64,000 bases of DNA from an uncultured candidatus Brocadiaceae bacterium (GCA_964421565.1 CAYQXJ010000006.1:154679-218678); one strand, 5' to 3'; positions 4,686-43,322 are shown, counted from the stretch's first letter. Notes: a model not told the origin generated them from the letters alone. Numbers and translations are program-made.

Positions 4686-4777
4686 CCGAGCACCTTTCTA
4701 TGTGTTTTATGTCGCTGCCATATAAGTATTTACGATTAGTGCGTGCAGGCCGCCGCGCGTTTCTGTCAGAGTGATCG

Positions 4778-4787
4778 TTGTATACAA
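4778..4787. promoter_or_regulatory. Perfect 10-bp palindrome TTGTATACAA between a promoter-like AT-rich stretch and the J-domain gene start; a candidate operator
   Basis: TTGTATACAA is its own reverse complement. It lies ~20 nt upstream of the GTG at 4808, in the divergent region shared with the macro-domain gene. Confidence 0.3.
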
Positions 4788-26639: not shown

Positions 26640-26728
26640 GGGCGGGGGATCTTCCTTTCGTCCGCCATCTGGAGAGAAGAAAGGGGCCCCGAAAGCGGCC
26701 CCCATTGTAGCTCACCTACACGCCGCTT

Positions 26729-28378
26729 TCAGGCGAGGGCCTCCTCCAGGTCCTGCTCAACGGTTGAGATGGGTTGGATGTGGAACTTGTCGACGAGCAC
26801 CTTCAGGACGGGATCGGTGATGAAGGCCGGCAGGCTCGGCCCGAGCTTCATATCTTCGATGCCCAGGCTGAACAGGGTCAGCAGGATCGCCACCGCCTTC
26901 TGCTCATACCAGGAGAGGATGAAGGAGAGCGGCAGTTCGTTTACCTCGCAGTCGAAGGCGTCTGCCAGTGCCAGCGCAATCTGTATGGCGGAGTAGGAGT
27001 CATTGCATTGCCCGATGTCGAGCAGGCGCGGTATGCCGCCGATGTCGCCGAACTCGAGCTTGTTGAAACGATACTTGCCGCAGGCGAGGGTCAGGATCAG
27101 GCAGTCGTCAGGAACCGACTCGGCGAACCGGGTGTAGTAGTTGCGCCCGGGCTTCGCTCCGTCGCAGCCGCCGATCAGGAAGAAGTGGCGGATGTCGCCG
27201 TTCTTCACCGCGTCAATCACTGCCCCCGCGACGCCCATGACGGCCTCGTGGCCGAAGCCGACGGTAATCGTCTTCTCTTCGTCGTCTTCGGCAAAGCCTT
27301 CGGCCGCCTGAGCCGCCTGTATGACCTGCGAGAAGTCGGTATCGCTGATGTGGGTGACGCCGGGCCAGCCGGTCGGGCCGCTGGTGAATATGCGCTCCTT
27401 GTAGGTGTCCTTCGGCTTCATCAGGCAGTTGGTGGTCATCAACACGGCGCCGGGGAAGTCCTCGAACTCCGAGCGTTGGTTCTGCCATGCACTGCCATAG
27501 TTGCCGACCAGATGTTCGTGCTTCTTCAGCTCGGGATATCCGTGAGCGGGCAGCATTTCGCCGTGCGTGTAGACGTTGATGCCCGTTCCTTCGGTCTGCT
27601 CCAGCAGCGCCTTCAGGTCCTTCAGGTCGTGGCCGCTGACCACGATGCACTTACCTTTCAGCGGTGTCACGCGCACCTGCGTGGGTTCGGGATCGCCATA
27701 AGTGCCCGTGTTCGCCCTGTCCAGCAGTTCCATCGCCTGCAGGTTGAGCTCCCCGGTCTGGAGCGCGTGGGCCAGAAGGTCGCCCATGTCCGTCGGCTCG
27801 GACGCCACGTAATCGAGCAGTTCATGGAACAGCGCGTAGGTTTCGTCATCCTCCTCGCCAAGGATGGCGGCGTGATGCGCGTAGGCGGCGGCGCCTTTCA
27901 CGCCATAGACGATGGCTTCCTGCAGGCCGGCCACATCCTCGCCGTGGCGATCGATGCGGTTCTCGATGGAGAGCTGTTCGCCCTGGCTTATCATGTCGTT
28001 CAGGTCGTCGGCCGGTTCGAGGGCGGCGGTGCCGTCCAGCTCTTCGGGCGCTCTGTCTGCTTCGCGACAGGCGTCTTCATAGCGCCCCTTCAGCCGTTCG
28101 CGCAGCTCGGTGCCCCTTCTCACGTAGTCCTGCAGGTATTCGGGGTCGAAGTTGGTGTTGGTCAGCGTGGTGAACATCGCGTCGCAGACGAACCGGTCGG
28201 CCTCGTTGTCACGCGCGCCCAGCTCGCCGGCGCGGCGGCCGTACATCGCAACACCTTTGGTCAGGTGGACCAGCAAGTCCTGCATGGCTGCCGTTTCGGG
28301 ATCCTTGCCGCACACACCGTAGCTGGTGCATCCGTTGCCCTGTGCCGTCTGTTCGCACTGGTAGCAGAACATGCTCAT
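26729..28378 (-). CDS. hcp: Hybrid cluster protein (hydroxylamine reductase / prismane protein)
   Basis: The (MS)MFCYQCEQTAQGNGCTSYGVCGK N-terminal cubane-cluster motif is present. The length is 549 aa with Hcp-like conservation throughout. Confidence 0.9.
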   Translation of the reverse strand: MSMFCYQCEQTAQGNGCTSYGVCGKDPETAAMQDLLVHLTKGVAMYGRRAGELGARDNEADRFVCDAMFTTLTNTNFDPEYLQDYVRRGTELRERLKGRYEDACREADRAPEELDGTAALEPADDLNDMISQGEQLSIENRIDRHGEDVAGLQEAIVYGVKGAAAYAHHAAILGEEDDETYALFHELLDYVASEPTDMGDLLAHALQTGELNLQAMELLDRANTGTYGDPEPTQVRVTPLKGKCIVVSGHDLKDLKALLEQTEGTGINVYTHGEMLPAHGYPELKKHEHLVGNYGSAWQNQRSEFEDFPGAVLMTTNCLMKPKDTYKERIFTSGPTGWPGVTHISDTDFSQVIQAAQAAEGFAEDDEEKTITVGFGHEAVMGVAGAVIDAVKNGDIRHFFLIGGCDGAKPGRNYYTRFAESVPDDCLILTLACGKYRFNKLEFGDIGGIPRLLDIGQCNDSYSAIQIALALADAFDCEVNELPLSFILSWYEQKAVAILLTLFSLGIEDMKLGPSLPAFITDPVLKVLVDKFHIQPISTVEQDLEEALA

Positions 28379-28432: not shown

Positions 28433-29623
28433 TCAGATGTCCTTCGTTCTGTCCGCCATCTGGCGTCCCCACTCGCGGCACGCCTGCAGGGCGTCCGCGT
28501 CTGGCTGCCACTTGCACTTGATGCCGTCCGTCGCCAGCGGGATACTGCACTGTTCGAAGTGGTTTTCGATGATCTGAACGGCCTCGCCGCTCCAGCCGTA
28601 GCTGCCGAACGCGGCGCCGATTTTGTTCTGGAAACGCAACCCCCGCAGGTCCTCCAGTATGGGCCGGATGGTCGGCAGCACGCCCTGATTCAGGGTCGGC
28701 GAGCCGATGATCACGGAGTGAGCCTTGAAGACCTCGACCAGGGCGTCATTACGGTCGGTGACGCCCATGTGAAGTATCTTGTGGTCTACGCCCCCGTCGC
28801 TGAGCCCGGCTCCGATGGCATCGGCCATGCGACGCGTGCCCTCCCACATGGTGTCGAACAGGATGACGGCACGCGGGCGGGGTTCCTGTTTCGCCCACTC
28901 CACGTATTTCTCAACGATCTGCATCGGCTCCCGTCGCCATATGATGCCATGACTTGGCGCGATCATCTCGATGTCGAGATCCAGCGGCCCGAGCTCCTCC
29001 ACCTTCCGAAGCACCTGCGGGCTGAACGGCGTCAGGATGTTGACGTAATACTTGAGCGCCTCGTCGAACAACTCCTTCTGGTTCACCTGATCGTTGAAGC
29101 GGAACGCCGTGGCGTAGTGTTGTCCGAAGGCGTCGTTGGGCATCAGTATGTGGTCGGCGGTCAGGTAGGTGAACATGCTGTCCGGCCAGTGCAGCATGGG
29201 CGCCTCGACGAACATCAGGTCATTGCGCCCGACGTTGACCGTGTCGCCGGTGTTGACAGCCTTGAAGTCCCAGTCTTTGTGAAAGTGGCCGGGGATGCTC
29301 CGCTTGCCGCGGCGGGAGACGATGAGCGTGGCGTCCGGGCAATGCCGCAGCAGGGCGGGCAGAGCGCCGGAGTGGTCGATCTCGGAGTGGTTCGCCACCA
29401 CGATGTCGATCTGCGCCGGGTCAATGATCTCGCGGATGTTTTCGAGCATCTCCTCGGCGAACGGTTCCCACACGGTGTCGACCAGCACTGTCTTCTCGTC
29501 GAGGATCAGGTACGCATTGTAGCTGGAGCCGCGGTGCGTGGAGAGTTCGTGTCCGTGGAAGTGCCGCAGGTCCCAGTCCACGACGCCCACCCAGTAGACG
29601 CCGTCCTTTAGTTTTTCTGGCAT
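28433..29623 (-). CDS. Flavodiiron protein (rubredoxin:oxygen / nitric oxide reductase, FprA/ROO-type)
   Basis: N-terminal metallo-beta-lactamase-like diiron domain (VYWVG, NHSEIDHSGALP H-x-E-x-D-H motif) plus C-terminal flavodoxin-like domain; ~396 aa. Confidence 0.9.
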   Translation of the reverse strand: MPEKLKDGVYWVGVVDWDLRHFHGHELSTHRGSSYNAYLILDEKTVLVDTVWEPFAEEMLENIREIIDPAQIDIVVANHSEIDHSGALPALLRHCPDATLIVSRRGKRSIPGHFHKDWDFKAVNTGDTVNVGRNDLMFVEAPMLHWPDSMFTYLTADHILMPNDAFGQHYATAFRFNDQVNQKELFDEALKYYVNILTPFSPQVLRKVEELGPLDLDIEMIAPSHGIIWRREPMQIVEKYVEWAKQEPRPRAVILFDTMWEGTRRMADAIGAGLSDGGVDHKILHMGVTDRNDALVEVFKAHSVIIGSPTLNQGVLPTIRPILEDLRGLRFQNKIGAAFGSYGWSGEAVQIIENHFEQCSIPLATDGIKCKWQPDADALQACREWGRQMADRTKDI

Positions 29624-29646: not shown

Positions 29647-29907
29647 TCACGCAGCCCTGACGGGCGGCTCCAGCACCATCTCCCGATTGCAGCATCGTGG
29701 TTCGAAGGCGCCGCCGGTCACTCGCAGCACGCCGACTTCGGCGCCGCACACCGGGCAGTAGTAGAAGCGCGTTCGGCACCCCAGCGGAGCCATTGGCCGG
29801 TTGCAGCAGCGCGGTTCGAACCCGGCGCCGCGCCCGACCAGCACTGTCACCTCGGCGCCGCAGATGTTGCACCGGTAAACCATTCCCCTCGTCACGCTGT
29901 CTGTCAC
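29647..29907 (-). CDS. Tandem desulforedoxin-like protein with two Fe(Cys)4 modules
   Basis: It contains two copies of the desulforedoxin signature YxCxxCGxxVxV...GxxxxxxCCNxxM. They are YRCNICGAEVTVLVGRGAGFEPRCCNRPM and YYCPVCGAEVGVLRVTGGAFEPRCCNREM. The GTG start at 29907 is preceded by GGAGGAGG. The GTG and the upstream TGA overlap within the tetranucleotide GTGA, which suggests translational coupling. Confidence 0.7.
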   Translation of the reverse strand: MTDSVTRGMVYRCNICGAEVTVLVGRGAGFEPRCCNRPMAPLGCRTRFYYCPVCGAEVGVLRVTGGAFEPRCCNREMVLEPPVRAA

Positions 29908-30128
29908 TCTTCCTCCTCCGGTTCGGCTTCGGCCCCGTGAACGCGTTCCATGGGTTCACCACAGCACACAAGGTCGAGGATGCCCACGCCCCCACGGGTG
30001 ACCATGATCAGGTTGCCGCACCCGCGACACGCGTACGCCGTGCCGACCTTGATGGTGAGTGCGCTCTCCCAGTCGCCCAGGTCCCACTCGGGCGGCGGTG
30101 ACTCGGGGTACTTCTCCTGGCTTTCCAC
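29904..30128 (-). CDS. Desulforedoxin-like protein (single Fe(Cys)4 module)
   Basis: YACRGCGNLIMVTRGGVGILDLVCCGEPM matches the D. gigas desulforedoxin pattern ([27 protein letters not shown]). I chose the GTG start at 30128, which is preceded by a GGAGG Shine-Dalgarno sequence. The longer 30350 ORF is Arg-rich with low complexity and probably not translated. Confidence 0.6.
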   Translation of the reverse strand: MESQEKYPESPPPEWDLGDWESALTIKVGTAYACRGCGNLIMVTRGGVGILDLVCCGEPMERVHGAEAEPEEEE

Positions 30129-30365
30129 AGCTCCACCTCCTGGTTCTGACGCAACGGCGGCGGCTGATGCGTATGCGCAGTGCCTGCTGGGAACGCCGTG
30201 CCGCCGTGCTTCGGGGGGATGTCGTAGCGGCGCCCCTCGCTGCGGGTTCCTGCGGCGCTTCCATCTTTCTACGCTTTCGGCGAACATCGCGCAAGTAGGT
30301 TCGCAGCGCCGGCGTGCGCCCGGGCCGCCTGATGGCAGGGTCCTGGCCATGGCAGTCGGTGTCTC

Positions 30366-30683
30366 CTATGGTGCAGGGGTCTTGACGACGAGGAACCGAA
30401 AAGCCGCTTCGCCATCGTTCATCAGCCTGTGTGGAATGCCGGCCGGGCTGTGCACAAGGTCGTCCCGGCGGACAGACTGCTGCTGGTCGCCTATCTCCAC
30501 GGTGCCCACCCCCTCCAGTACGTAGAAGAACACGTCCAGCGGAGTTTCATGCCGCCGGAGGGCCTCGCGCGGTTCCAGGGTGATGTGCACCACCTGCATA
30601 TGCTCGGTGTCGTGCAGCTTCCGGGCGCTGACGCCGTGTGGGTTCTCGGATTCAGCCGTCTGCGTCGCGTGGACCACCTGCAT
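30366..30683 (-). CDS. Cupin-domain protein
   Basis: The small barrel protein carries H...H-type cupin motifs (LRRHETPLDVFFYVLEGVG...SPAGIPHRL). Confidence 0.6.
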   Translation of the reverse strand: MQVVHATQTAESENPHGVSARKLHDTEHMQVVHITLEPREALRRHETPLDVFFYVLEGVGTVEIGDQQQSVRRDDLVHSPAGIPHRLMNDGEAAFRFLVVKTPAP

Positions 30684-30708: not shown

Positions 30709-31479
30709 TCAAGGGGCCGAAGCGGGCTGGGGCGGATTGAGCGTGCAGCGCTCAAGGACGCTGCCGCGAATGCTGACGGTTACGTCCTGCAGGGGGATGT
30801 CCTTGCCGCTGTGCTCGAGGGCCCTGCGGGCGATCATGGTGAGGCCCGAGCAGCAGGGTACCTCCATGTGGACGACGGACAGCGAGCGGATGTCGTTTTG
30901 AGCCAGCATGGCTGTTAGCTTCTCGGCGTAGTGCGACGCGTCGTCGAGCTTGGGGCAGCCGACCAGGAGCTTTCGCCCGGTCAGGAACTCGCCGTGGAAC
31001 CCTGCGAAGGCGAAGGGCACGCAGTCCGCAGCAAGCAGCAGGTCCGCGCCGTCCAGGAATGGTGCGCGCTCAGGGACCAGATGCATCTGAACGGGCCACT
31101 GGCGCAGGGCGCTCGGGGCGGCGGCCGGCGCCGCTTCGGCGGTTGACTCGTCTTCCTGCCCGGCGTCGAAGCCCATGAGCGCCAGGCCCGGGCAGCCGGC
31201 GTGCGAGGGGGCGGGCTGCGTGGCGTTCGGTGGACTTGCTTGCCCCAAATGTTCCTCCACGGCCACCTCGTCAAACTCCTCGGCCTCGCGTTCGACGATG
31301 CGGATTGCATCCCGTGGACATGTGCCCAGGCACGCGCCGAGCCCGTCGCAATAGCTCTCCTTGACGAGCCGAGCCTTACCGTCGACTATCTGCAGGGCAC
31401 CTTCCGCGCAGTTCGGGATGCACTCTCCGCAGCCGTTGCACTTCTGCTCGTCGATCTCGACGATCTTCCGTAAGGCCAT
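30709..31479 (-). CDS. 4Fe-4S dicluster ferredoxin-domain protein with a Cys-rich C-terminal domain
   Basis: The N-terminus has two CxxCxxCxxxCP-type motifs (CNGCGECIPNCAEGA and CDGLGACLGTCP). The C-terminal region contains GCPKLDD and VPCCSGL. Confidence 0.65.
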   Translation of the reverse strand: MALRKIVEIDEQKCNGCGECIPNCAEGALQIVDGKARLVKESYCDGLGACLGTCPRDAIRIVEREAEEFDEVAVEEHLGQASPPNATQPAPSHAGCPGLALMGFDAGQEDESTAEAAPAAAPSALRQWPVQMHLVPERAPFLDGADLLLAADCVPFAFAGFHGEFLTGRKLLVGCPKLDDASHYAEKLTAMLAQNDIRSLSVVHMEVPCCSGLTMIARRALEHSGKDIPLQDVTVSIRGSVLERCTLNPPQPASAP

Positions 31480-31501: not shown

Positions 31502-32194
31502 CTATGGGTTCAGGCGCTGACGGCCGAACAGCCGCCCCGGTTGTGTCAGCGCATGCTTCTGGAGTTCTGCCAGTCGGTCCTCGCGTGCGTCGGCTTCAAG
31601 ATTCACGATCAGGTCGGCGTCCCAGAGTGGGGCGGCATTCGGCGTGCCCATGCTCTGGCGCTCGTGATGATGCTCCACAATGTCGAGTATCTCGCTCTTG
31701 ACGGCGTCCGGCAGGTTGATGTCGGCAAGCAGCTTCGCGGCGATGCGGCGGCCCATCACGTCGGTCGGCGCGTCGGCTTCATCGTCCGGCACGGAACGTC
31801 CCAGGTCATGGAGGATGGCGGCGGGCACCAGCACGAGCGGTTCGGCTTCCGTGCGGCGCCCGATCTGCTCTGCCAGTTCCAGCACATCGAGGGTATGCTC
31901 CACCTTATCCCTTTCGGCTCCGAAGACCCCCTCCATGCGCTCGGTCAGCTCTTCCCGCAACGGCCCGACGGCGCTGGCCATGCTGCTGAGGCACTCGGCG
32001 GCGTGGGCGCACCAGTTCAGGCATTTCATGGTGTTCTCGGGGTTGAGGAAGCGGTGACCACACTTTCTGCAGCGCCTGACGGGCTCATCGGGCCAGAACT
32101 CCACCGGGTGGCCGCAGCCGGGGCAGGGCGCAACGGTAACGTCGTCGGCCTTCATAAAGCGGGGGTCCTGCCCTGGGCACTTCGGTGCGCTCAT
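31502..32194 (-). CDS. HD-domain phosphohydrolase-like protein with an N-terminal zinc ribbon
   Basis: The N-terminal CPGCGH...CRKCGH ribbon is followed by an HD motif (AAILHDLGR) and a His-rich IVEHHHE segment. Confidence 0.6.
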   Translation of the reverse strand: MSAPKCPGQDPRFMKADDVTVAPCPGCGHPVEFWPDEPVRRCRKCGHRFLNPENTMKCLNWCAHAAECLSSMASAVGPLREELTERMEGVFGAERDKVEHTLDVLELAEQIGRRTEAEPLVLVPAAILHDLGRSVPDDEADAPTDVMGRRIAAKLLADINLPDAVKSEILDIVEHHHERQSMGTPNAAPLWDADLIVNLEADAREDRLAELQKHALTQPGRLFGRQRLNP

Positions 32195-32616
32195 CGCTTC
32201 GTCCCTTCCCCTGCGCAGATGCGTCCGGCGATGTCCTCCAGCGAGACGGCGTCCATCCTCTCAGCCAGCAGGGCCTGCAGGGACGCGAGCTGTTCGCGAA
32301 ACGGGCAGCCGCTCGTGCGCTGGCATATGCCGGGTGTCTCGAAGCACTCGTTCATCACCAGCGGGCCCTGCACGGCCTCCAGCACTTCCCGCAGGGTCAC
32401 ATCCACCGGCCGTTCGGCCAGACGATAGCCCCCGAACGGCCCCTGGCGGCTCTCCACCAAGCCGGTGCGGAGCAGTGTCTGCATTATCTTGCGCAGGAAG
32501 TCCTCCGGCACGGCCTCCTCCTGCGCCAGAGTGCTGACCGGCACAAAGTCCCCCGCGTGGACCAGATGCGTCAGCGCCCGGAGCGCATAGTCGGTCTCTC
32601 GTCTGACGATGGCCAT
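32191..32616 (-). CDS. Rrf2-family transcriptional regulator (NsrR/IscR-like, three-Cys cluster ligand set)
   Basis: The N-terminal wHTH is RETDYALRALTHL...VSTLAQEEAVPEDFLRKIMQTLLRTGLVESRQG. The C-terminal Cys triad is C-x6-C-x5-C (CFETPGICQRTSGC). It is the first gene of the minus-strand operon. Confidence 0.85.
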   Translation of the reverse strand: MAIVRRETDYALRALTHLVHAGDFVPVSTLAQEEAVPEDFLRKIMQTLLRTGLVESRQGPFGGYRLAERPVDVTLREVLEAVQGPLVMNECFETPGICQRTSGCPFREQLASLQALLAERMDAVSLEDIAGRICAGEGTKR

Positions 32617-32690
32617 CAGAGGGTCCTATATGAGAGGTGTTGTATCCTATAAAGTAAGAGTATATCACTCCTATATCTCCTTGTCAAGGC
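32617..32690 (-). promoter_or_regulatory. Sigma70-type promoter of the Rrf2-led operon with three overlapping TATAGGA repeats, a candidate Rrf2 operator
   Basis: On the minus strand, the -35 element TTGACA (plus-strand TGTCAA, 32682-32687) is separated by 17 nt from the -10 element TATACT (plus-strand AGTATA, 32659-32664). Three copies of TCCTATA(T/A) lie at 32625-32632, 32645-32652 and 32670-32677. One is inside the spacer, one just downstream of the -10 and one next to the start codon. The region is unusually AT-rich for this genome. Confidence 0.6.
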
Positions 32691-32896
32691 CAATCCGTGC
32701 ACTCGCGCGCGAGTGGTGTGGATTCCGGCCCGTCTTTTGCCTTGCAGTGCTCGTCGGCCGGGCCGATACTGCCTTGCTCGGCGCGGGCATATGTTCCTTC
32801 GATTCGGGTCACGGCATGTCCTCTGGCAGACACAGACGCCGCACCTTCCTCGGGCGGACGGTACACGGTTTCGGATGCGTCGTGCGGGCTGCGACG

Positions 32897-33559
32897 ATGG
32901 TTCTACGCAGCCCGAGGATCCTGCTGTTGGCGGGGCTCCCTTTCGCGCTATGCATGGTGCTGTATGTGGCCTTCTTCGGCGTTACGCTGGCCTTCGTCGA
33001 CGAGGTAGTGGATGTTGTGATCCAGCCGGGGGCGTGGTGGCGCAACGCGCTGCGCTGGGCGATGGTGGTGACGGTGCCTCTCGCCGTATTCGTGCTCTCG
33101 GTCTTCACTTACACTTTCGCGTGTCTGGTCATAGCCGCTCCGCTCTATGAGTTCCTGTCGGCGACGGTTGAACGGCGGCTGACGGGCCTTGTGGCAGAGG
33201 AGCCTTTCACGCTCAAGGCCATGCTCCAGGATATCTGGCGCGCGCTGGCGGACACTGCGCGCATCCTGCTGATCGAGGTCGGGGTCCTGATGCTCGGTCT
33301 GATCTTCGTGCCGGTCACGACGGTGCTGGCGGCGATGGCATCTGCCGTGCTGCTGGCCCTGGAATACTGCGACTACCCCATGGGGCGACGGCGGATGCCG
33401 TTCTCCGAGCGTCTCGGCTTCGCGCGACGGCATATCTGGGAGATGTTCGGACTCGGAATGCCTCTGTTGTTTGCGCTCGGCATTCCCTTCGTCGGCGTCG
33501 CCTTCCTGCCGCTCGGCGTGATCGGCGGAACAATCCTCTTCGTGGAACTGCGGGAGTGA
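32897..33559 (+). CDS. CysZ/EI24-like polytopic membrane protein
   Basis: There are about 4-5 hydrophobic helices and ~220 aa. The conserved-looking segment is EYCDYPMGRRRMPFSERLGFARRH. The start codon is uncertain; I chose the ATG at 32897, but the ORF stays open back to 32609. Confidence 0.45.
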   Translation: MVLRSPRILLLAGLPFALCMVLYVAFFGVTLAFVDEVVDVVIQPGAWWRNALRWAMVVTVPLAVFVLSVFTYTFACLVIAAPLYEFLSATVERRLTGLVAEEPFTLKAMLQDIWRALADTARILLIEVGVLMLGLIFVPVTTVLAAMASAVLLALEYCDYPMGRRRMPFSERLGFARRHIWEMFGLGMPLLFALGIPFVGVAFLPLGVIGGTILFVELRE

Positions 33560-39458: not shown

Positions 39459-41432
39459 TCAGTCCGTGGCCTGTAGTTCTCTGATGCGGTCGCGCAAGAC
39501 GGCGGCACGCTCGAAGTCGAGGCGTTCTGCGGCCTGTTTCATTTCCTTTTCCAACTCATCCATTCGGCTGGCGGCAAGATAATCTTCTTCGGTCTCGGCG
39601 GCAACTGGCGTCTCGACGCGTCGTTTCCACGCCTGCACCTCGTAGTCGATGCCTCGGCGGATATCCTTGCGGATGGTCTGCGGTTCGATGCCGTGCTTGC
39701 GGTTGTAGTCCATCTGCACTTCGCGGCGCCGCTGGGTCTCCTCGATCGCGTTTGCCATGCTTGCGGTGACCTGGTCGGCGTATAGGATGACTTCAGCGTT
39801 CACGTTCCGCGCGCAGCGGCCCATTGTCTGCACGAGGCTCGTCTCCGAGCGCAGGAAGCCTTCCCTGTCGGCATCGAGTATGGCCACCAGGCTCACCTCG
39901 GGTAGGTCAAGGCCCTCGCGCAACAGGTTTACGCCGACGATGGCGTCGTACTTGCCGCGACGCAAGTCGTTCAGGATTTCCACCCGCTCTATGGTATCGA
40001 CCTCGCTGTGCAGGTAACAGCAGCCCACGCCCTCATCGCGCAGGTATTCGGAGAGGTCCTCGGCGAGGCGCTTCGTCAGCGTGGTGACCAGGGTTCGCTC
40101 CCCCCGCTCAGCGTGCTTGCGTATCTCCAGAGTAACGTCCTGCACCTGTCCTCGGGCTGGTCGCACATCTACGCGCGGATCGACGAGGCCGGTTGGTCGG
40201 ATGATCTGTTCCACCACCGGACCTTCGCTCTGCTCGATCTCGTACCGGTCGGGGGTTGCGCTCACGAAGAGGCGGCGGTCGACCAGTTCCACCCACTCCT
40301 CGAACTTCAGCGGCCGGTTGTCCAGCGCGCTCGGCAGGCGGAAGCCGTAGTCGACCAGCGTCTGCTTGCGGGAACGGTCGCCGTGATACATGGCGCGTAT
40401 CTGCGGCACCGTCTGATGGCTCTCGTCCACGATGCAGAGGAACTCATCCGGAAAGTAGTCCAGCAGGCAGGCGGGGCGTTCGCCGGCACGTCGTCCGCTG
40501 ATGTGGCGGGAGTAGTTCTCGATGCCGGGGCAGAAGCCAACCGATTCCAGCAGTTCCATGTCGTAGCGAGTGCGAGCCTCGAGCCGCTGAGCCTCCAGCA
40601 GCTTGCCCTGCCCTCGCAGTTCCTCCAGGCGTTCCTCCAACTCCTCTCCGATCGCACCCACAATCCGCTGGATCCGGTTTTGGGGCGTGACGAAGTGGTT
40701 TGCGGGATAGATGTCAATCAGGTTGATCTCTTCCAGCTTCTCCCCGGACAACGGGTCGATGACGACGATGCGGTCCACGAAGTCGCCGAAGAAGTCAATC
40801 CGATAGGCGATTTCCTCGTAGGCGGGGTAGATCTCCACCAGGTCGCCGCGCGCCCGAAAGGTGCCGCGCCTCAGTTGGGCATCGCTGCGGCAGTACTGGA
40901 TGTCCACCAGTCCGCCGAGCAGGTCTTCACGTGCCAGCTCCTTGCCCGTCTCGACCGTTACGAACATGCTCTGGTAGTCTTCGGGCGTGCCGATGCCGTA
41001 GATGCAAGAGACGCTGGCGACGATGACGACGTCGTCGCGTTGCATCAGGCGCGTCGTGGCGGCCAGGCGCAGCCGGTCGATGTCCTGGTTGATGGAGGCA
41101 TCCTTCGCGATGTACAGGTCACGCGACGGAACATACGCCTCCGGCTGGTAGTAGTCGTAGTAGCTGACGAAGTAGCCCACCGCGTTGTGCGGGAAGAACT
41201 CCTTGAACTCGCTATAGAGCTGTGCGGCAAGGGTCTTGTTGTGGCTGATGACGAGGGTGGGCAGTCCCAGGTTCTCGATCAGGCGGGCCATGGTGAAAGT
41301 TTTGCCCGTGCCCGTCGCCCCGAGCAGCGTCTCGGCCCGACTGCCTGAGCGGAAGCGTTCGGTCAGCGCCTGGATGGCCGCTGGCTGGTCACCGGCGGGC
41401 TTGTAAGGTGCTGTGCATTCGAAGTGTGCCAT
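39459..41432 (-). CDS. uvrB: Excinuclease ABC subunit B
   Basis: The Walker A motif is GATGTGKT. Helicase motifs and the C-terminal UVR domain (DELEKEMKQAAERLDFERAAVLRDRIRELQ) are present. The length is 657 aa. Confidence 0.9.
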   Translation of the reverse strand: MAHFECTAPYKPAGDQPAAIQALTERFRSGSRAETLLGATGTGKTFTMARLIENLGLPTLVISHNKTLAAQLYSEFKEFFPHNAVGYFVSYYDYYQPEAYVPSRDLYIAKDASINQDIDRLRLAATTRLMQRDDVVIVASVSCIYGIGTPEDYQSMFVTVETGKELAREDLLGGLVDIQYCRSDAQLRRGTFRARGDLVEIYPAYEEIAYRIDFFGDFVDRIVVIDPLSGEKLEEINLIDIYPANHFVTPQNRIQRIVGAIGEELEERLEELRGQGKLLEAQRLEARTRYDMELLESVGFCPGIENYSRHISGRRAGERPACLLDYFPDEFLCIVDESHQTVPQIRAMYHGDRSRKQTLVDYGFRLPSALDNRPLKFEEWVELVDRRLFVSATPDRYEIEQSEGPVVEQIIRPTGLVDPRVDVRPARGQVQDVTLEIRKHAERGERTLVTTLTKRLAEDLSEYLRDEGVGCCYLHSEVDTIERVEILNDLRRGKYDAIVGVNLLREGLDLPEVSLVAILDADREGFLRSETSLVQTMGRCARNVNAEVILYADQVTASMANAIEETQRRREVQMDYNRKHGIEPQTIRKDIRRGIDYEVQAWKRRVETPVAAETEEDYLAASRMDELEKEMKQAAERLDFERAAVLRDRIRELQATD

Positions 41433-43142: not shown

Positions 43143-43322
43143 GGGGTCTTGGTACGCTGAGTTAGTCTCTACGCGCAAGCGCTGATCCTATAGGCCATTC
43201 TACTGACCGTTGAGGAGCGGTTCAAAGCTGCCCCACGCTTTACCGGCACGGGGGTGGTTGGTAGCATTGCACGGCTTGGCATGCTGTAGCCATACCTCCG
43301 GAGGCCATGTAAGGAGCAATTC

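Follow-up and report, generated by a model that had tools for sequence, protein, structure and literature searches.

The genes hcp and frdX belong to regulons that respond to nitric oxide or nitrite and are governed, depending on the taxon, by NsrR, HcpR, NorR or DNR (PMC1274295). Several described systems come close to the locus reported here. NsrR, known from E. coli, Streptomyces coelicolor and other bacteria, is an NO-sensing [4Fe-4S] repressor with the Rrf2 fold that controls NO-detoxification genes, including hcp in enterobacteria (PMC1274295); its operator is a dyad of about 23 bp that overlaps the target promoters (the NsrR site being 23 bp), and in S. coelicolor it is autoregulated (PMC9338935). 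At the isc promoter, the gene for IscR heads the operon that IscR represses, and the holo protein occupies more than one site in this promoter, giving negative autoregulation (PMC12594620). HypR, SifR and SaiR are thiol- or quinone-sensing Rrf2 proteins that recognise inverted half-sites of 5-6 bp lying 9 bp apart, 19-23 bp in total; half-sites at this distance are the canonical Rrf2 operator, as in TGTAA-N9-TTACA for HypR and SifR (PMC9218516). [quoted passage not shown]

The locus that we analysed lies in a 64-kb stretch of a Planctomycetota genome (uncultured candidatus Brocadiaceae bacterium, GCA_964421565.1 CAYQXJ010000006.1:154679-218678), referred to below in its entirety as the window. 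It shares something with each of these systems. As in NsrR, the regulator has the Rrf2 fold and a set of one aspartate and three cysteines that aligns residue for residue; as at the isc promoter, the regulator gene comes first; the predicted operators have the same geometry as those of HypR, SifR and SaiR; and the targets include those of HcpR. The differences are equally clear. The regulator is not an NsrR ortholog, falling below the model cut-off, and its cysteines are spaced CX6CX5C. There are two predicted operators per promoter, and they read ATAGGA-N9-TCCTAT, whereas the NsrR operator is gATGyAT-N5-ATrCATc (PMC1274295). The operon carries hcp, flavodiiron, FrdX-like and desulforedoxin genes rather than hmp. 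IscR binds a [2Fe-2S] cluster through a Cys3His set and recognises a different motif, whereas here residue 107 is an arginine and isc/suf genes are absent. HypR, SifR and SaiR lack the three-cysteine cluster site and their half-sites differ from the present ones.

The gene content of the locus, all on the minus strand, is as follows.

32191-32616, minus strand: Rrf2-family regulator of 141 aa, the first gene (PF02082, E 1.4e-30)
31502-32194, minus strand: protein with a Zn-ribbon and an HD domain, its start overlapping the Rrf2 stop (domain search)
30709-31479, minus strand: FrdX-like protein with an N-terminal 2x[4Fe-4S] ferredoxin domain and an AF_0155-type C-terminal domain (domain search and PDB sequence search)
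30366-30683, minus strand: Cupin_2 protein (domain search)
29904-30350, minus strand: desulforedoxin-like protein with the domain at the C-terminus, start codon uncertain (PF06397)
29647-29883, minus strand: protein of 78 aa with two desulforedoxin-type CxxC...CC domains (PF06397, E 1.5e-11, in two stretches)
28433-29623, minus strand: flavodiiron protein with metallo-beta-lactamase/ODP and flavodoxin domains (domain search)
26729-28378, minus strand: hybrid cluster protein Hcp (Prismane), the last gene (PF03063, E 5e-172)
26682-26703, minus strand: terminator-like GC hairpin with a T-rich tail just past the hcp stop (terminator scan)

The eight genes from the Rrf2 gene to hcp either overlap or are separated by gaps of at most 55 nt. 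On the minus strand, the interval 25.5-32.7 kb contains a single terminator-like site, the one just after hcp, and one strong promoter-like site; a weaker 9/12 match at 26732 lies past the hcp coding sequence. No internal promoter or operator was found before the flavodiiron or hcp genes of the window. The eight genes thus form an apparent operon, in which hcp would be co-transcribed from a promoter about 6 kb away, with no other signals between them. For the FrdX-like protein, the PDB sequence search gave a convincing match for the N-terminal ferredoxin domain only, and PF27217 is recorded on the identical product as well as on homologs in two more distant loci (L017 and L021). The 78-aa tandem desulforedoxin frame and the desulforedoxin-like frame both lie between the cupin and flavodiiron genes; the N-terminal 70-100 residues of the latter frame (29904-30350) look like an over-long gene call.

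The same arrangement recurs in relatives. We collected 14 orthologs of the regulator (53-64% protein identity) from Planctomycetota MAGs labelled Brocadiia or Brocadiaceae and aligned their upstream regions with that of the window. In these loci the gene for the HD protein, that for the FrdX-like protein or both follow the Rrf2 gene, and hcp comes later: the Zn-ribbon/HD gene comes after the Rrf2 gene in 10 of the 14 (L007 has the Zn-ribbon part only), the FrdX-like gene is present in 10 of the 14, and at least 10 carry hcp downstream on the same strand.

Upstream of the regulator gene is a short AT-rich island, where the GC content at 32620-32699 drops to 0.41 against 0.64-0.71 in the flanks, in agreement with what the preliminary description of this DNA had noticed. 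The minus strand from 32690 to 32614 reads ccTTGACAaggagaTATAGGAgTGaTATACTcttacttTATAGGAtacaacacctctcaTATAGGAccctctgATG and contains the following promoter elements.

32682-32687, minus strand: -35 hexamer TTGACA (consensus scan; the same in the window and all 14 orthologous loci)
32666-32667, minus strand: extended -10 TG (consensus scan; alignment columns 21-22, at least 90% conserved)
32659-32664, minus strand: -10 hexamer TATACT, 17 nt after the -35 hexamer
32650-32653, minus strand: predicted transcription start, at the usual 6-9 nt downstream of the -10 hexamer

The combination of TTGACA, 17 nt and TATACT matches the sigma70 consensus at 11 of 12 positions, and a scan for TTGACA-N16-18-TATAAT found no other match of at least 11/12 in the 64 kb; 30 shuffles of the window gave none. 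That this is a sigma70 promoter had been proposed from the window sequence, and the comparison with relatives bears it out: the -35 hexamer is identical and the 17-nt spacer is kept in all 15 loci (the window and 14 orthologs), while the -10 hexamer varies only among TATACT, TATAAT, TAAAAT, TATGAT, TATTAT and TACACT. Hexamers, a spacer within the 16-18 nt range and conservation in relatives are all found at this predicted promoter, as in sigma70-type promoters. Judging by these sequence features, it is a strong, conserved, near-consensus promoter of the extended -10 type. From the customary distance to the -10 hexamer, transcription would start at about 32650-32653.

Two further observations concern the surroundings of the promoter. 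An A-rich block with the consensus GAAaAGGaC lies just upstream of the -35 hexamer in most of the orthologous loci (L001-L014) and is weak in the window (CGGATTGGCC, 32688-32700, minus strand); it may be an UP-like element. On the opposite strand, public gene calls place a divergent EI24/CysZ gene (309 aa at 32609-33559, plus strand, in the window; 58-987 in L023 and L024). This long call starts 14 nt from the Rrf2 ATG and spans the entire promoter/operator region. It is probably over-extended, since the Pfam EI24 match and the matches to orthologs begin at the ATG at 32897, corresponding to a 220-aa product. In other words, automated gene calls hide the intergenic promoter/operator region inside a probably over-extended EI24/CysZ frame.

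The island had first attracted attention because of three copies of TATAGGA, which were thought to mark repressor operators within the spacer, just after the -10 hexamer and next to the start codon. The copies are indeed there: on the plus strand, TCCTATA occurs at 32624-32630, 32645-32651 and 32669-32675, that is, three times within 52 nt, and the 64-kb window has five copies in total compared with 0.79 expected. Yet the heptamer is not the unit that phylogenetic footprinting over the 15 loci brings out. The unit is a 21-bp inverted repeat, (AT)AGGA-N9-TCCT(AT), present in two copies.

32654-32674, minus strand: predicted operator O1, ATAGGAGTGATATACTCTTAC, extending over the final 10 nt of the spacer, the entire -10 hexamer and 5 nt beyond it
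32630-32650, minus strand: predicted operator O2, ATAGGATACAACACCTCTCAT, spanning the predicted start to about +20
32624-32630, minus strand: third TATAGGA copy, made up of the last O2 base and the Shine-Dalgarno AGGA (32627-32624), 7 nt before the ATG

The first two TATAGGA copies are the left half-sites of O1 and O2, respectively. The corresponding right half-sites are degenerate in the window (TCTTAC and TCTCAT), and for this reason they were missed when a single sequence was considered. The 15 sequences align with zero gaps over a promoter/operator block that begins with the -35 hexamer and ends 58 nt downstream, with O2; pairwise identity there amounts to 63%, compared with 30% in the 58 nt further upstream. 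The consensus of the block across the 15 loci is TTGACAgcGacATATAGGAgTGaTATACTCCTATTtAA.AGGAT.aaA.aagTCccATA, in which O1 occupies alignment columns 14-34 and O2 columns 38-58. O2 begins exactly 24 bp after O1, without gaps, in 15/15 loci, so that the centres of the two palindromes are 24 bp apart in a fixed register. Read in the same sense, all four half-sites share the consensus WATRGGA. In the dyad register, 69% of the cells are complementary; shifting one partner by 1-3 columns lowers this figure to 37-47%. All 15 loci preserve the innermost GA/TC pairs, and 12-14 of them the next G/C pair; considered by site, the GGA/TCC cores of O1 are paired in 14-15 loci and the GA/TC core of O2 in 15. 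Part of the conservation of O1 is owed to the -10 and TG promoter elements that it overlaps.

The two sites were also recovered by a search that made no use of the window. A 23-bp symmetrised matrix, built from the 14 orthologs only with the window left out, was run over the 64 kb (about 128,000 positions scored); it ranked O1 first (27.9 bits) and O2 second (17.7 bits), followed by 7.9 bits for O2 shifted by 2 nt and by 6.5 bits. Best scores in mononucleotide-shuffled sequences had a mean of 11.5 and a maximum of 17.7 bits, and the score of O2 is no better than this maximum; support for O2 therefore comes from its fixed position and conservation rather than from its score. The scan revealed no further operators in the 64-kb window. 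The remaining TCCTATA copies, at 39781 and 43186, score at most 2.9 bits. The palindrome CCTATAGG, which the preliminary description had likened to the repeats, does occur at 43187-43194; it has no N9 spacing, and at less than 3 bits, against 27.9 and 17.7 for O1 and O2, it is unrelated to them. The pattern TCCTATA-N(13-18)-TCCTATA, suggested earlier for regulon searches, is likewise the wrong model, since footprinting yields ATAGGA-N9-TCCTAT.

Within the orthologous loci (±4 kb), a scan at 12 bits or more detected nothing beyond the expected pairs except one match of 12.0 bits in L011 (position 2075) and one additional site in L007. The latter, AACAGGAGCCTAAAAGTCCTATT (4726-4778), lies directly upstream of the FrdX-like gene, in the short gap after the truncated gene that has only the Zn-ribbon, and reaches 23 bits on a matrix made from O1 and O2 sites only, with the site itself left out. 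No convincing -35/-10 pair was found around it; it might mark an internal promoter or serve as a roadblock. The two operators also differ in how well they are kept. In two closely related loci, L009 and L012, O1 is intact but the right half-site of O2 is eroded (TGGCAT and TGGTAA), so that O2 may be dispensable; this suggests that O1 would be the essential site and O2 an auxiliary one.

What, then, of the third TATAGGA copy? The proposal that the copy beside the start codon is an operator does not survive the comparison: an exact TATAGGA at this position is absent in all 14 orthologs. After O2 most of them have AAAGGG, AAGGGG, TAGGGG, ACGGGG, ATGAGG, ACGAGG or TTTGGAGGA, and most carry a G-rich Shine-Dalgarno sequence there (GGAGG, AGGGG or GAGG) at a variable distance from the ATG. 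The leader varies in length only after this purine run, and the ATG is found 6-13 nt from the end of O2. In the window itself, AAGGGGG precedes the ATG of the flavodiiron gene and CAGGGGG that of hcp, in both cases at the same distance. Because the copy is not conserved as a repeat, purine runs occupy its position and the distance to the ATG varies, it is best described as the tail base of O2 plus a predicted ribosome-binding site, and not as an operator. A third operator starting from this copy (ATAGGA-N9-GGCCAT within a 23-bp site, extending into the coding region) was considered and rejected, as it has no matrix score and the ATG distance varies among orthologs.

These results bear directly on the idea that the three direct TATAGGA repeats are themselves the functional units, read by a protein that binds direct repeats, such as a response regulator. 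Three exact heptamers in 52 nt, where about 0.8 would be expected in the window, and intervals of roughly two helical turns (21 and 24 nt) between them are what one might expect in that case. The two spacings are however unequal, the third copy is conserved in none of the 14 orthologs and falls on the Shine-Dalgarno position, and copies 1 and 2 are partnered by inverted TCCTAT half-sites 9 bp away in 15/15 loci. Moreover, neither the additional site in L007 nor those of the more distant homologs described below (L017, L019 and L021) form direct-repeat arrays; they are palindromes, either single or in pairs. We therefore give very little credence to direct repeats as functional units.

Since O2 belongs to the transcribed region and borders on the ribosome-binding site, its palindrome might instead act as a hairpin in the 5' UTR that controls translation or stability, and not as a DNA operator. 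The leader, however, folds at only -3.5 kcal/mol, less stably than 196 out of 200 shuffled sequences (z = +1.7), and Rfam gives no match even at E ≤ 1. Covariation is not seen either: changes are uncompensated, and five measures of it are at or below the means of shuffles. Halves that are conserved in sequence without covariation are as expected for a protein-binding site. The same palindrome also recurs as O1, which is located mostly upstream of the start. Taken together, these findings leave hardly any probability for an RNA hairpin.

Two palindromic operators read by a protein thus being the favoured interpretation, the question is which protein binds them. The preliminary description had pointed to the Rrf2 regulator encoded immediately downstream, with the repeats in positions typical of repressor sites, and both the identity of the gene (PF02082) and the positions hold up, the Rrf2 protein being the predicted binder. 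Judged by sequence, the geometry is that of the canonical Rrf2 operator, twice over: a dyad of 19-25 bp with half-sites of 5-6 bp about 9 bp apart. Supporting this assignment are also more distant homologs of the regulator. A homolog of 41% identity (L021) keeps the full architecture of -35, 17 nt, -10, O1 and, 24 bp later, O2; its promoter is TTGACA-17-AATACT with ATGCGA-N9-TCCTAT, followed 24 bp on by ATAGGA-N9-TCGTAT. In Kiritimatiellia (L017, 39%), TTGACG-17-TAAATT is overlapped by ATAGGA-N9-TCGCAT over the -10, and in Bacillota (L019, 39%), GGA-N9-TCC is found just after the -10. The gene downstream is not the same in these loci: in L017 and L019 the Rrf2 gene is immediately followed by hcp, in L021 by a ScdA/hemerythrin gene. 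In other words, the motif accompanies the Rrf2 gene in three phyla, whichever gene is downstream, and from its presence in L021, L017 and L019 we conclude that it travels with the Rrf2 clade. The motif is absent in two further loci (L020 and L022) with homologs of 36-39% identity, where the gene context also differs; these homologs are probably members of other paralog groups. In addition, members of the clade hardly differ in FLRKIMQ, the recognition segment of the helix-turn-helix, in keeping with a conserved DNA motif. Based on adjacency, co-occurrence and geometry, the most likely binder of O1 and O2 is the operon's own Rrf2 protein, the product of its first gene.

Could another factor, for instance HcpR of the CRP/FNR type, bind the operators, with the Rrf2 gene simply the first of the regulated genes? 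HcpR controls hcp-frdX in many anaerobes (PMC1274295), and in L021 (1162-2663) the homolog adjoins a CRP-family regulator gene as well as a separate FrdX-like gene, so that two types of regulators for nitrosative-stress genes may coexist in that organism. The sites of HcpR and FNR are nevertheless TGTGA-N6-TCACA or TTGAC-N4-GTCAA (PMC1274295), without 9-bp spacing, whereas N9 is the Rrf2 geometry (PMC9218516). The motif, furthermore, tracks the Rrf2 gene in three phyla, and the near-invariant recognition helix of the clade also speaks against another binder. This possibility we regard as quite improbable.

The regulator itself is a clear member of the Rrf2 family (106.6 bits for PF02082 against a cut-off of 30, and 91.9 against 73.3 for TIGR00738). 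Across 42 homologs, C91, C98 and C104 never vary, and D9 is conserved to at least 90%; the three conserved C-terminal cysteines are those expected of the Fe-S class of Rrf2 proteins. When the profile of the clade is aligned with S. coelicolor NsrR (5n07), D9 pairs with D8, and C91, C98 and C104 pair with C93, C99 and C105. These NsrR residues are the ligands of its [4Fe-4S] cluster (PMC5411485, PMC9218516). The regulator has, accordingly aligned, an NsrR-like set of one Asp and three Cys as candidate cluster ligands. At the same time, it scores below the curated cut-offs of all named subfamilies considered (NsrR, IscR, RirA, CymR, HypR and SUF regulator): 40.1 bits against 182 for NsrR (NF008240), 49.9 against 207.6 (TIGR02010) and 28.1 against 275 (NF008110) for IscR, 56 against 193 for RirA, 42.9 against 195 for CymR and 19.5 against 180 for HypR. 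Neither the Cys3His set and isc/suf linkage of IscR nor the NsrR box is found here, residue 107 being Arg, the operon having no isc/suf genes and the operator consensus being ATAGGA-N9-TCCTAT. The clade is small, with 121 clusters at E ≤ 1e-10 in 5.8 billion proteins, and comes mostly from Planctomycetota MAGs; outlying members belong to Kiritimatiellia and Bacillota. Full-text literature searches found no study of this Rrf2 clade or of Rrf2 regulation in Planctomycetota, and nothing relevant on an hcp-linked Rrf2 regulator other than NsrR; Rrf2 and Planctomycetes were named jointly in just two unrelated papers and one preprint. To our knowledge, transcriptional regulation in Planctomycetota is almost unexplored.

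The nature of the signal deserves separate consideration. Flavodiiron and desulforedoxin-type proteins also serve in defence against oxygen and reactive oxygen species (superoxide) in anaerobes, and the operon encodes a flavodiiron protein and three desulforedoxin-type domains. With the same architecture and the same binder, the signal could accordingly be oxygen, peroxide or the redox state, with the Rrf2 cluster being oxidised or lost in air in the manner of RsrR or IscR, and the operon would then be an anaerobe's defence against oxidative stress. In line with this, the best match among PDB structures is the redox sensor RsrR (6hsd; E 1e-11 with the single sequence and 1e-23 with the profile), and for IscR, oxidation of the cluster alone is enough to free the protein from type 1 sites (PMC12594620). 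The [2Fe-2S] ligands of RsrR, on the other hand, are E8, H12, C90 and C110 (PMC9218516), and of these E8, H12 and C110 are unmatched: the positions of E8 and H12 hold D9 and R13 (TDYALR compared with VEWALH), and the clade has C91, C98 and C104 aligning with NsrR. The gene neighbourhood points in the same direction. ScdA/YtfE is an NO-stress gene, and ScdA/hemerythrin, hcp and the FrdX-like gene are the most constant partners of the regulator; hcp belongs to nitrosative-stress regulons (PMC1274295). Overall, we consider a signal of the oxygen or redox kind less likely than not.

What the sequences show, namely the promoter, the ligand residues, the genes of the locus and two conserved palindromes at a constant offset, can be combined into the following model, in which the Rrf2 protein as binder, repression, DNA binding by the holo form and the sensed signal are what we infer. 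One Rrf2 homodimer would bind each operator, O1 over the spacer and the -10 hexamer and O2 over the start, and the two bound dimers would deny RNA polymerase access to a promoter that is otherwise very strong. The cluster-bearing (holo) form would be the one that binds DNA. Nitric oxide or, less likely, oxygen or oxidants might damage or modify the cluster and so release the repressor, whereupon the regulator itself and the seven downstream genes would be switched on. We consider it likely that an autoregulated operon has its promoter and its operators in the 70-bp AT-rich island and, jointly with this, that a cluster-carrying Rrf2 autorepressor, acting through two operators over the promoter and released by NO or oxygen, controls the eight-gene operon.

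As a class, this mechanism is textbook; what is new are the details, namely the operator sequence, the tandem layout and a subfamily linked to hcp and flavodiiron genes. Since the concept is that of a standard autorepressed promoter, the gain is incremental. It nonetheless provides a testable operator model, ATAGGA-N9-TCCTAT as two sites 24 bp apart, together with a candidate regulon core made up of hcp, the flavodiiron protein, the FrdX-like ferredoxin and the desulforedoxins. Regulon prediction in these Planctomycetota MAGs would become possible, and one more type of regulator would be added to those for the control of hcp. It is tempting to go further and speculate, tentatively and with slightly less than even confidence, that the clade is a separate family of nitrosative-stress sensors with its own operator code and tandem-operator promoter, which controls hcp, flavodiiron and FrdX-like genes independently, beside NsrR, HcpR, NorR and DNR. 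If this is true, the two unequal operators may give these bacteria a graded, two-threshold response to NO.
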